This document shows positions 7,389 to 18,248 of a stretch of 25,707 bases of DNA, piece after piece. The stretch spans positions 1 to 25,707 of the forward strand of contig JBLHHE010000001.1 of assembly GCA_047616465.1 (NCBI GenBank), in the 5' to 3' direction. A model generated the notes under the pieces. The model was not told where the DNA came from. It saw only the letters and a list, made by a program, of their open reading frames with translations, and did not search any database. Position 1 is the first letter of the stretch, and each line of letters begins with the position of its first letter. A program made the translations under genes and the position numbers. The DNA comes from Alphaproteobacteria bacterium (lineage in GTDB: Bacteria > Pseudomonadota > Alphaproteobacteria > UBA6615).

Positions 7389-7472
7389 ACGCGTATCAGT
7401 TTGTTTTCTCCTCCCTGACAGTATGTACATCTAGGCGGCAACGGCAGGCAGCCGTTGCCGCCCTTCTTTTTT
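7389..7472 (+). ncRNA. Candidate anti-SD sRNA (suhB/MmgR-like), possibly 3'-UTR-derived
   Basis: GTTTTCTCCTCCCTGAC (TCTCCTCCC at 7407-7415) is followed by a strong intrinsic terminator, resembling the TTTCCTCCCT core plus terminator layout. Confidence 0.35.
7434..7472 (+). terminator. Rho-independent terminator after nrdB
   Basis: Perfect 12-bp stem GGCGGCAACGGC/GCCGTTGCCGCC, 5-nt loop, followed by CTTCTTTTTT. Confidence 0.85.
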
Positions 7473-15574: not shown

Positions 15575-17362
15575 ATGACCGACTACAATGCGCCCGTCAA
15601 AGACATGCGGTTTATCTTCGATGAGCTTTGCGACCTTGAAGGTTTGAACGGCCTGCCAGCCTTCGCCGATGTCACGCCCGATCTGGTCGACCATATATTG
15701 AACGAGTCGGCGAAATTCACCGGCGAGGTGGTGGCGCCGCTCAATCAAAGCGGCGACCAGCAGACATCAACGCTCGACGCCGGCGTGGTGACCACACCGG
15801 ACGGTTTTAGGCAAGCCTATGCGCAATTCGTCGAGGGCGGTTGGAACGGCACGCCTTTTAGACCCGAAGATGGCGGCATGGGCCTACCGTGGACGCTGAC
15901 CACGGCGCTGCAGGAGATGTGGCAATCGGCCAATCTGGCCTGGTCGCTCTGCCCGCTGCTGACCATCGGCGCCATCGAGGCGGTGATCGCCCACGCCACG
16001 CCGCAATTGCGCGCCGCCTTTCTGCCCAAACTGGTGAGCGGCGAGTGGACCGGCACCATGAACCTGACCGAACCCCAAGCGGGCACCGATCTGAGCCTGC
16101 TGAGGACCCGCGCCGAGCGTGAGGGCGGCCATTACCGCATTAAAGGGCAGAAGATTTTCATCACCTTCGGCGAGCAGGATTACACCGACAATATCGTTCA
16201 CCTGGTGCTGGCCCGCCTGCCCGACGCGCCGCCCGGAGTGAAGGGGATCAGCCTGTTTCTGGTGCCGAAATTCCTGGTCAACGAGGATGGCAGTCTGGGC
16301 GAACGCAACGATGTGTACGCGGTCAACCTGGAGCACAAGCTGGGGATCCATGCCAGCCCCACCTGCGTCATGGCTTACGGCGACCAGGGCGGCGCCATCG
16401 GTTATCTGATCGGCGAAGAGCATGACGGTCTGCGCTGCATGTTCACCATGATGAACAATGCGCGCCTCAATGTCGGCCTGCAGGGCGTGTCGATCGGCGA
16501 ACGCGCCTACCAACACGCTGTCGAGTACGCCAAGTCGCGGGTCCAGTCGGCGCCGATCAGCGGCGGTGGCGAATCGGCGACCATAATCCAACACCCCGAT
16601 GTGCGGCGCATGTTGATGATGATGCGCGCCCAGGTCGAAGCGATGCGCGCCATCGCCTACTACACCAACGCGGCGTTGGATGTGTCGCGCCACCATGGCG
16701 ACGAAGCGGTGCGGCGCGCCAATCACGCGCGTATGGATTTGCTAACCCCCGTGGTCAAAGCCTGGTGCACCGATCTGGGAGTCGACATCGCTTCAATCGG
16801 CGTTCAGGTGCATGGCGGCATGGGCTTTATCGAGGAAACCGGCGCCGCCCAGTATCTGCGCGATTCCCGCATCGCCCCCATCTACGAGGGCACCAACGGC
16901 ATCCAGGCGATCGACCTGTTGGGGCGTAAGCTGCTGCGCGATGGCGGCGGCGCCATGAGCGACCTGCTCGACGAGATGGAGCAAGTCGATGCCGCCCTGG
17001 TCGCCACCCAGGACGCCGATTGCGCGGCCGTCCAGAAATCCCTCGCCGAAGGCCGCGCGGCGTTACGCAAAGCATCCGACTGGCTGCTCGATCCCAAGAA
17101 CAACGATATCGACACGAAATTTGCCGGCGCGACACCGTTTCTGCATCTGACCGGTACTGTGGTCGGTGGCTGGCTGATGGCCCGCTCCGCACTCGCCGCC
17201 TACCGCAGGTCGGCCAATGGCGGCGACCGCTCCTTCCTCGATGCCAAAATCGTCACCGCGCGATTCTACGCCGAACATGTGATGCCGCGCGTCCACGCCC
17301 TGTTGCCCGAAATAACCGAGGGCAGCGGTTCGGTGCTAGCGCTGGCCGAAGACCAGTTCTAA
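15575..17362 (+). CDS. Long (~595 aa) acyl-CoA dehydrogenase, DmdC-like subfamily
   Basis: YNAPVKDMRF, GTMNLTEPQAGTDL, GQKIFITFGE, KGISLF, EHKLGIHASPTC, MMNNARL, QVHGGMGFIEET, IYEGTNGIQAIDL. Confidence 0.92.
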   Translation: MTDYNAPVKDMRFIFDELCDLEGLNGLPAFADVTPDLVDHILNESAKFTGEVVAPLNQSGDQQTSTLDAGVVTTPDGFRQAYAQFVEGGWNGTPFRPEDGGMGLPWTLTTALQEMWQSANLAWSLCPLLTIGAIEAVIAHATPQLRAAFLPKLVSGEWTGTMNLTEPQAGTDLSLLRTRAEREGGHYRIKGQKIFITFGEQDYTDNIVHLVLARLPDAPPGVKGISLFLVPKFLVNEDGSLGERNDVYAVNLEHKLGIHASPTCVMAYGDQGGAIGYLIGEEHDGLRCMFTMMNNARLNVGLQGVSIGERAYQHAVEYAKSRVQSAPISGGGESATIIQHPDVRRMLMMMRAQVEAMRAIAYYTNAALDVSRHHGDEAVRRANHARMDLLTPVVKAWCTDLGVDIASIGVQVHGGMGFIEETGAAQYLRDSRIAPIYEGTNGIQAIDLLGRKLLRDGGGAMSDLLDEMEQVDAALVATQDADCAAVQKSLAEGRAALRKASDWLLDPKNNDIDTKFAGATPFLHLTGTVVGGWLMARSALAAYRRSANGGDRSFLDAKIVTARFYAEHVMPRVHALLPEITEGSGSVLALAEDQF

Positions 17363-17444
17363 TCGCTAAGCCCCTCTCCTTTTGGACGAGGTTAAGTTGC
17401 TCGGCTCCCCTCAAGAAGCACGTTCTAAAATCAATTTTTTGCTC

Positions 17445-17460
17445 TGTGACCCCTGTCACA
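17445..17460. promoter_or_regulatory. CRP-family binding site
   Basis: TGTGA-CCCCTG-TCACA is a perfect TGTGA-N6-TCACA, preceded by an A/T-rich tract. Confidence 0.7.
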
Positions 17461-17493
17461 AGCGGATAACCGCGGCACGTGTAGTCTCTCCAT

Positions 17494-17570
17494 ATTGCTC
17501 CTGTGTCAGGAAGCAATAATTCCCCTGAACGGCGGGCAGAACAGATAGTTCGCCCGCCGTTCAACCTTTC
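17494..17570 (+). ncRNA. Candidate sRNA under CRP-family control
   Basis: -10-like TAGTCT at 17482-17487, hairpin 17493-17518, single-stranded ATTCCCC, 16-bp hairpin 17526-17563, then CCTTTC. No ORF with an SD. Confidence 0.45.
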
Positions 17571-17580
17571 AGACTATGAA

Positions 17581-17610
17581 TTGCGTGCGATGGAAATCCG
17601 TCGTTATAAT
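17581..17610 (+). promoter_or_regulatory. Sigma70 promoter of the HCCA-isomerase-like gene
   Basis: TTGCGT-N18-TATAAT. Confidence 0.55.
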
Positions 17611-17646
17611 CCGGCACCCCCACCCCCATCAGCTTGAAGAGGCATC

Positions 17647-18248
17647 ATGTCCGCGCCCATAGATTTCTACTTTGCCTGCCCATCGCCCTGGTCTTACCTG
17701 GCGATCGACGAATTGAAGCGCCTCGCCGATGCCAACGGGCGCACTATCGCCTACAAGGCGATCGACGTCGGGCGCTCGTGGAGCGAGGCCGGCTCCGGCC
17801 AGCCCCTCGGCAACCGACCCCAGGTGTTGCAGGATTATCGCCTGGTCGAGCTGCCCCGTTGGGCCGCCTGGAGAGGCACCGAGATTAACTCTCATCCCAA
17901 GCACTTCCCCACCCCCTTCCACCTATCCTCGAATGTCATCATCGCTGCGCGCCAAACTGGCGCCGATGTCTACCCGCTGACCCGGGCGCTGATGCGCGGC
18001 TGTTGGGTCGATGATTTGCATATCTCGGATAGCGATACCGTCGGCAAAATCGCCGACCGCCTGGGTCTGGATGGTGCAGAGCTTTCGCCGCCGCGAAAAC
18101 CCAAGCCGTCGCCGACGAGATGACCGCCAACACCGACGAAGCACTGGCGGCCGGCGCCTGGAGCGTGCCGTCGATTGTGGTCGATGGGGAATTATTCTTC
18201 GGACAGGACCGGCTGGAAATGGTCGCCTGGCGGCTAGCGGGGAACTAA
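17647..18248 (+). pseudogene. 2-hydroxychromene-2-carboxylate isomerase / GST-kappa (DsbA-fold) gene with a 1-nt deletion near 18083-18085
   Basis: IDFYFACPSPWSYLA N-terminus. The C-terminal FAAAKTQAVADEMTANTDEALAAGAWSVPSIVVDGELFFGQDRLE continues in the -1 frame to TAA 18246-18248. Span is 602 nt, one short of 201 codons. Confidence 0.85.

Follow-up and report, generated by a model that had tools for sequence, protein, structure and literature searches.

CyaR, a small RNA (sRNA) of enterobacteria that ends in a terminator hairpin, pairs through a C-rich region with ribosome-binding sites, for example that of ompX. Two further enterobacterial sRNAs, MicL and DapZ, are embedded in 3' untranslated regions (3' UTRs) and have internal promoters of their own, and the suhB family is characterized by the 10-mer UUUCCUCCCU. 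The regulatory region of cyaR in Yersinia has been reported to be bound directly by CRP in a cyclic AMP (cAMP)-dependent manner (PMC4376681). In Sinorhizobium meliloti, the sRNA SMelC181, of unknown function, is activated directly by Clr with cAMP or cyclic GMP (cGMP), and its authors state that few CRP-controlled sRNAs are known (PMC10127613). The known anti-Shine-Dalgarno-type sRNA of the Alphaproteobacteria, alpha-r8, also called MmgR or SuhB (RF00519), is associated with Hfq, carries a pyrimidine-rich single-stranded motif, and has been linked to carbon metabolism (PMC12559287; bioRxiv 10.64898/2025.12.09.693200). Here, we describe a candidate sRNA gene at positions 17445-17575 of a 25,707-nt stretch of alphaproteobacterial DNA (the window). 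The window is an entire contig from a 2.47-Mb metagenome-assembled genome (MAG; G000) that is 75% complete.

We read this element as the gene of a trans-acting non-coding sRNA, which lies in the 3' region of an acyl-CoA dehydrogenase gene and is transcribed from a CRP-type class II promoter, and we regard this reading as rather probable. Comparison of homologous loci supports an RNA gene that is discrete, conserved and non-coding and has a promoter of its own, beyond a mere terminator of the dehydrogenase gene. The sRNA family is real and new, and it matches no described RNA family.

In the mechanism that we infer, which covers transcription and its start site, the identity of the activator, the dependence on cyclic nucleotides, the mode of pairing and the targets, a dimer of a CRP-type activator would bind TGTGAC-N4-GTCACA at -41.5, replace the missing -35 element, and recruit sigma-70 RNA polymerase to a TAnnnT -10 element. 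Transcription would begin at A17494, and the RNA would comprise a 5' stem-loop from +1, then a C-rich stretch left unpaired, and finally a long GC-rich hairpin as its terminator. It would most likely act in trans, with the C-rich stretch pairing with G-rich ribosome-binding sites of target mRNAs and lowering their translation, and Hfq would probably assist the pairing. The hfq gene is present in the relatives G011, G050, and G013 and was not found in the incomplete G000. This mode of action is proposed because of the analogy to CyaR-type and alpha-r8-type sRNAs and because of the conserved unpaired run of C residues.

The promoter region contains the following features:

17428-17439, plus strand: A/T-rich stretch, -66 to -55, with an A+T fraction of 0.78, compared to 0.28 in the -33 to -13 spacer (mean of 23 homologous promoters).

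17445-17460, no strand assigned: perfect CRP-type palindrome TGTGA-N6-TCACA (here TGTGA-CCCCTG-TCACA; extended form TGTGAC-N4-GTCACA), centred at 17452.5.

17482-17487, plus strand: -10 hexamer TAGTCT; all 23 promoters share its T-12 and A-11.

17494, plus strand: predicted transcription start, an A with a pyrimidine at -1, at the onset of conservation.

The original prediction, made from the letters of the window, had pointed to a perfect CRP box with this centre, to TAGTCT as a -10 element preceded by a poor -35, and to A17494 as the start. The -35 position reads CAAGCG here and CATCGC in a second subgroup of homologues. All sequence features that it listed for the element were present when the sequence was read directly. 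The predicted start lies 7 nt after the -10 hexamer. The box centre is 29.5 bp from T-12 and, as the original prediction had stated, exactly 41.5 bp from +1 as placed by conservation, a geometry that holds in 8 genera. Relative to this predicted start, the box has class II geometry, and a CRP consensus site was found together with a poor -35 and a recognisable -10. The A/T-rich stretch further upstream could offer the C-terminal domain of the RNA polymerase alpha subunit an UP-like contact, upstream of the activator. A consensus scan found no complete sigma-70 promoter for the sRNA, which reflects the thresholds of the scan.

The comparison with relatives suggested in the original prediction recovered the element: in a BLAST search, the intergenic region had matches in four genera of the family besides that of the window. 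The alignment of these matches showed an invariant box, an invariant TA at fixed distance from it, and a sharp onset of conservation at ATTGCT; in two genera, the matches started precisely at the base of 17494. All 22 first-round homologues carry the box. The distance from TGTGA to ATTGCT was 49 nt in 20 of them and 50 nt in one, and one of the 22 had a single mismatch in a box at the same position.

Information content was measured on 23 promoters that were stacked without gaps. It was high in the ten core positions of the box (1.92 bits per position) and lower in the centre of the box (1.0 bits per position) and in the spacer from -33 to -13 (0.59 bits per position). T-12 and A-11 reached 2.0 bits. 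Immediately upstream of the start (-6 to -1), the value was 0.89 bits per position, and it rose to 1.83 bits per position from +1 to +9. The -10 element had an A at -9 in 19 and a T at -7 in 18 of the 23 promoters, for a consensus of TA-n-A-T-T, and +1 was invariably an A that followed a C or a T. The comparison with relatives shows that the promoter anatomy and the other features of the element are under selection.

In order to describe the distribution of the element, we use two covariance models, R1, which was built from five sequences, and R2, which was rebuilt from the 22 matches of R1. The order to which the window belongs contains a single family (46 genomes). R1 matched exactly once per genome in 22 of these genomes, and R2 exactly once per genome in 27 of the 46, which represent 8 of 18 genera; the E-values of such home-made models are rough. 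A repeat or mobile element was also considered and is ruled out by the single copy per genome. R2 had no match in 150 genomes, one per family, from the rest of the Alphaproteobacteria. A scan for the exact pattern covered 185,579 species with a single genome apiece and gave 20 stretches. Of these, 18 were the same module, all in uncultured MAGs titled "Alphaproteobacteria bacterium" or "Rhodospirillaceae bacterium", and the other two were chance matches without a box. The carriers all belong to one uncultured marine alphaproteobacterial family.

The novelty claimed in the original prediction held up against Rfam 15. A cmscan search with its 4227 covariance models assigned the element to no family; it covered 17300-17700 at E <=10 and seven homologous loci at E <=1. 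The lone sub-threshold match was Xoo2 (13.5 bits, compared to a gathering score of 45; E 4.1), which lay on the opposite strand and covered the hairpin only. In the whole window, the sole match at gathering score was a tRNA at 2407-2478. At this score, the window gave no suhB/MmgR match, which also applies to a candidate at 7389-7472 that an earlier reader had put forward.

Variant copies were observed in a single genus, at L110 (G008:C5:2008985-2009035), L111 (G022:C8:13832-13888), and L109 (G058:C63:2622-2706). Two variant copies retain the promoter and the 5' hairpin and have lost the whole terminator hairpin, in a deletion that appears to be bounded by short G/C-rich repeats. One variant copy lacks the -10 element owing to a 14-nt deletion. 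All these copies are probably decaying or rewired.

Downstream of the predicted start, the RNA is composed of four parts:

17494-17517, plus strand: 5' hairpin 1 (ATTGCT-CCTG / CAGG-A-AGCAAT), conserved in sequence and predicted by folding.

17518-17525, plus strand: linker AAUUCCCC, predicted to be unpaired, with the C-run as the proposed seed.

17526-17563, plus strand: GC-rich hairpin 2 of 16 bp (12 bp, a 1-nt bulge, 4 bp, and a 5-nt loop), predicted by folding and covariation.

17564-17575, plus strand: 3' tail ACCUUUCAGACU, with a weak, interrupted U-tract.

The RNA has a length of about 70-80 nt according to the predicted start and terminator, and an RNA of 82 nt folds at -40 kcal/mol (z = -6.9 against shuffles). 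Folding and comparison bear out the architecture of the original prediction, namely a first hairpin, a C-rich linker, and a 16-bp second hairpin. The two hairpins are conserved in different ways. In hairpin 1, 5 of 9 pairs are invariant among the 22 homologues, and the spacing of the arms differs by 1 nt between the two subgroups (subgroup A, and the larger subgroup B). This difference is better explained by an RNA stem than by a site for a dimeric DNA-binding protein. In hairpin 2, compensatory changes were seen at 14 of the 15 modelled pairs, and 96% of the cells are paired; its sequence is entirely different between the subgroups, with the pairing retained. For the whole structure, pairing was 94%, compared to 29-53% when the partners were slid, and the observed covariation was reached by none of 500 shuffles.

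Between the hairpins, the linker reads CCUCCCCUC in the second, larger subgroup, which is close to the anti-Shine-Dalgarno sequence. CCCC is found at +29 to +32 in all 22 folded homologues (two are off by one base). The mean unpaired probability of the C-run is 0.75-1.0, and at least 0.94 in 20 of the 22. The exposure of an anti-Shine-Dalgarno-like linker, part of the original prediction, is thus predicted in every homologue that was folded.

Two other ways of reading the conserved block were tried and rejected. A small open reading frame on either strand is ruled out by 1-nt insertions or deletions in the conserved block (G002) and by the lack of a shared start codon or frame. An RNA on the opposite strand was also set aside: the reverse strand folds about equally, but a conserved promoter is lacking there, and the two subgroups do not share the downstream flank.

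The element lies downstream of a gene on the same strand:

15575-17362, plus strand: long-form acyl-CoA dehydrogenase, 595 aa (Pfam Acyl-CoA_dh_N/M/1 and Acyl-CoA_dh_C).

The RNA gene is located 3' of the stop codon of this dehydrogenase gene in nearly all homologous loci, and the C-terminal end of the dehydrogenase (...AEDxF-stop) is visible directly before the box in most of them. In most relatives, the stop codon is about 20 nt from the box, and there is no hairpin between the two, so hairpin 2 is the first terminator-like structure past the dehydrogenase gene. Since the dehydrogenase gene has no hairpin of its own there, hairpin 2 probably also ends the dehydrogenase transcripts, and it is likely to be the terminator both of the sRNA and of transcripts reading through from the dehydrogenase gene. 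These observations would also fit the view that there is no independent transcript, and that the block is the 3' UTR and terminator of the dehydrogenase mRNA, possibly processed. We consider this improbable. The role of a terminator leaves unexplained the invariant 16-bp palindrome, the spacing to T-12/A-11, the onset at a pyrimidine followed by an A, and the invariant 5' hairpin and C-run. Moreover, the sequence of hairpin 2 changed wholly between the subgroups while the promoter, the 5' hairpin, and the C-run stayed fixed. The original prediction had named a hairpin that is only the dehydrogenase terminator as the finding that would speak against it. Of this, the terminator role is probably true, and the conserved promoter and 5' RNA speak against the word "only". 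By the same token, the claim of a stand-alone sRNA gene stands with respect to the promoter, which is its own and conserved, and has to be modified with respect to hairpin 2, which probably doubles as the terminator of the upstream gene.

We also note that 28 nt after the dehydrogenase stop codon (17364-17391) match another place in the congener G002 (C7:55081-55108) with 93% identity. This stretch may be a short dispersed repeat, to judge from the match. It is absent in most homologous loci, where the stop codon sits much nearer to the box.

On the other side, the element is followed by a promoter and a gene in the same orientation:

17581-17610, plus strand: separate promoter of the downstream gene, TTGCGT (17581-17586), an 18-nt spacer, and TATAAT (17605-17610), kept in the window, G002, and G016.

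17647-18236, plus strand: DsbA-like gene outside the RNA (Pfam DSBA), with a frameshift near 18084.

The order of dehydrogenase gene, element, and gene for a protein of about 200 aa is found in six subgroup-A genomes, and the weak U-tract of hairpin 2 could permit regulated read-through. The element might on these grounds be taken for a cis-acting leader or attenuator of the DsbA-like gene. A function of this kind is very improbable, however, because the gene 3' of the element, DsbA-like and of about 200 aa in subgroup A, is a different one in the larger subgroup B, and because the gene has its own TATAAT promoter, situated between the hairpin and the gene and conserved in three genomes, as the original prediction had proposed for the next gene. 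In addition, the sequence past the hairpin is unrelated in G011 and G019, and there is no match to any cis-regulatory Rfam family. The TATAAT promoter was not called by the promoter scan, since its -35 matches at just 3 of 6 positions; this reflects the thresholds of the scan.

The DsbA-like gene is itself split in the window. In a tblastn search with the 200-aa orthologue of G002, residues 1-146 aligned with 17647-18084 and residues 147-197 with 18084-18236 in another frame. The split reflects either a pseudogene or an assembly error in the MAG.

The presence of a CRP-type box raises the question of which protein reads it. A protein of about 232 aa with cNMP-binding and HTH_Crp_2 domains is encoded in each of G000, G002, G011, and G050. 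Its recognition helix is STTRETVARVL (RETVAR), and its nucleotide-binding motif is FGELA...PRSAT. Among solved structures, it is most closely related to M. tuberculosis CRP, C. glutamicum GlxR, S. meliloti Clr, and E. coli CAP, and the recognition helix of the main CRP cluster has been given as RE(T/M)VGR (PMC10127613). The same four genomes encode 13 (G000), 29 (G002), 18 (G011), and 9 (G050) class III adenylate/guanylate cyclase domains. In G002, four tandem cyclases are located 3-9 kb from the CRP gene, and in G050, one cyclase is located about 2 kb away. The original prediction had assumed CRP/FNR proteins in the genome, and a CRP-type regulator with an RE..R helix is indeed there, in the company of many cyclases. 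For G000, a CRP-type activator is the best reading of the box, and the RETVAR protein is the candidate regulator.

Other regulators were considered. FnrL was rejected, since its ETVSR helix is specific to sites of TTGAT type and G013 yielded no protein of this kind. Operators of LuxR type and LacI type were set aside on half-site spacing and the unconserved centre of the box.

Perfect boxes are rare and mostly intergenic. A second conserved perfect box (TGTGAGCGCGGTCACA or a close variant) was observed at L084 (G002:C18:92355-92370) and L087 (G011:C1:557084-557099), with further copies at L086 (G050:C1:515042-515057) and L093 (G000:C199:4289-4304). In G002 and G011, for which the flanks were annotated, it is located in a divergent intergenic region upstream of flgI, the gene for the flagellar P-ring. 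This location suggests that flagellar genes are in the same regulon.

Several results qualify or weigh against the reading of the element as a CRP-type-activated, trans-acting sRNA gene. First, no other site in the window comes within one mismatch of the pattern, but 26 of 100 shuffles of the window also produced one or more, so the box is not significant from the window alone. The G000 genome has 3 perfect boxes, compared to 1 for a reversed-pattern control. The box is raised above chance because box, -10, and RNA start recur at the same spacing in the homologues. Second, the U-tract after hairpin 2 is weak, as the original prediction had conceded, or set back behind ACCCCC, as in the second subgroup, where a variable U run follows. 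The terminator scan did not call hairpin 2, a result that reflects the thresholds of the scan and fits a weak terminator. Third, no transcript of the element was seen in the one RNA run that was found. This marine metatranscriptome run (11% of sampled words) yielded on 16900-18100 a single contig of 152 nt (17744-17895), which lies inside the downstream gene; the run covers none of the element and is uninformative for its expression. Fourth, a target scan in G000, in which duplexes of the linker were compared with about 5,600 candidate start regions, established no conserved target. The top match near a Shine-Dalgarno site was hflK (Pfam Band_7, HflK_N), whose ribosome-binding site CAGGGGAAUAAUUG-AUG (G000:C71:3787; locus L112:188-1324) has 9 consecutive bases complementary to the linker. 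This complementarity is kept in G002 and G011, weaker in G016, and absent in G050 and G060. It is confined to subgroup A, with the linker AUUCCCC, and hflK was therefore rejected as a conserved target. Other top matches were an AraC-type regulator and a cyclopropane-fatty-acid-synthase-like methyltransferase.

Fifth, the distribution of the regulator does not follow that of the RNA. No CRP orthologue was found in G013 (100% complete), G042, G047, G049, or G014 in a protein search relaxed to E 0.01 and in Pfam HTH_Crp_2 and cNMP_binding scans of those genomes that were scanned; G059 was covered solely by a family search at 1e-20 and the HTH_Crp_2 scan. G009 has a frameshifted CRP remnant, and G045, G041, G058, and G022 have interrupted or partial copies. 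All of these genomes keep the RNA, and in most the box is perfect; R2 gave scores of 83-85 bits for four of them. In G013, no convincing helix-turn-helix of CRP/FNR type was found; two Pfam matches were barely above the cut-off and lay in uninspected frames of 162-167 aa. The spacer of the G013 locus has strongly diverged from that of its congeners, and all 10 core bases of the box are intact, which suggests that the box has another reader there.

Across the family, the RETVAR CRP orthologue has a patchy distribution. About 15 genomes have an intact copy (in G000 at C119:3317-4012), and none was found in about 16; the gene carries stop codons or is split in G045, G021, G005, G058, and G041. 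This pattern looks like repeated loss, and MAG errors may contribute to it. In genomes without CRP, the searches turned up nothing beyond FnrL-type proteins (ETVSR helix), stand-alone cNMP domains, and cNMP-FHA proteins. In the g12 genomes that lack a CRP orthologue, the flgI-type box is absent as well, and the box of the sRNA is the only one that they have in common.

These findings argue for an alternative in which the RNA gene is real and does not respond to cAMP or cGMP, its box being either read by a regulator other than a CRP-type cyclic-nucleotide receptor or, in part of the clade, a relic. The persistence of RNA and box in genomes with a missing or degraded regulator, the sole survival of the sRNA box in the CRP-less g12 genomes, and the retention of the core bases in G013 all point in this direction. 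Still, a TGTGA-N6-TCACA site at -41.5 conforms to the textbook layout of class II CRP promoters, G000 and all subgroup-A genera except g13 possess a regulator with an RE..R helix, and no other candidate reader of the box was identified. Furthermore, genes may be missed in MAGs, and several CRP-less genomes have small defects at the locus. The box has mismatches in G049 and G014, the 3' arm of hairpin 1 is altered in G059, and the G013 locus has TACAAC as -10 and one broken stem pair. The pattern of locus defects and CRP absence is not clean. On balance, we regard this alternative as unlikely, albeit a serious competitor of activation by a CRP-type protein.

More tentatively still, the operator could have outlived its CRP-type receptor, with a second protein outside the CRP/FNR family reading the site in lineages that lack the RETVAR protein. 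The sRNA might then be the output of two sensors, coupled to fatty-acyl-CoA oxidation via its location in the 3' region of the dehydrogenase gene. We think this idea doubtful. The mismatch between the distributions of the RNA and of the CRP orthologue raises the question of how an operator survives the loss of its regulator.

Outside the Gammaproteobacteria, CRP-type-controlled sRNAs are known in very few cases. The element adds a well-defined RNA family: it has 27 homologues, covariation supports its structure, and its promoter architecture is invariant. The clade from which it comes is uncultured, marine, and rich in cyclases. Since the box agrees fully with the CAP consensus, E. coli can serve for testing the promoter, with no need for a culture of the source organism.

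Among the described systems, the suhB family (RF00519) shares with the element a pyrimidine-rich single-stranded motif. It had no cmscan match on the element or on 7 homologous loci, and the 10-mer that marks the family is absent from the element. The regulators also differ, since SuhB of Sphingopyxis is under a LysR-type regulator and the element has a CRP-type box. The likeness to MicL and DapZ is one of location: the promoter is found at the end of, or just past, the upstream coding region, and the terminator is shared, in the case of the element probably, with the upstream mRNA. In contrast to MicL and DapZ, the promoter described here follows the stop codon instead of being placed within the coding sequence, and the sigma factor and the activator are different.

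CyaR (RyeE, RF00112) resembles the element in that it is an RNA of less than 100 nt with a preceding CRP site. This CRP-cAMP-activated, Hfq-dependent sRNA of enterobacteria had no cmscan match to the element at E <=10, and its lineage differs at the phylum level. A further difference is that the element sits in the 3' region of a dehydrogenase gene, and that its activator is a candidate only.

Functionally, the likeness is to CyaR and, among the Alphaproteobacteria, to SMelC181. The Clr site is HGTYHC-N4-GRWACA, and the box described here has a G at the position of Clr's pyrimidine, yet it fits the loose core GTNNC-N4-GNNAC. Clr belongs to cluster G, which has a diverse recognition helix, and the regulator described here has RETVAR, which is like the main cluster. 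R2 matched nothing in the 150 other alphaproteobacterial families. S. meliloti, like the genomes studied here, is rich in class III cyclases (28 annotated), and SMelC181 is the only alphaproteobacterial precedent that we found in which a CRP-like protein activates an sRNA gene.

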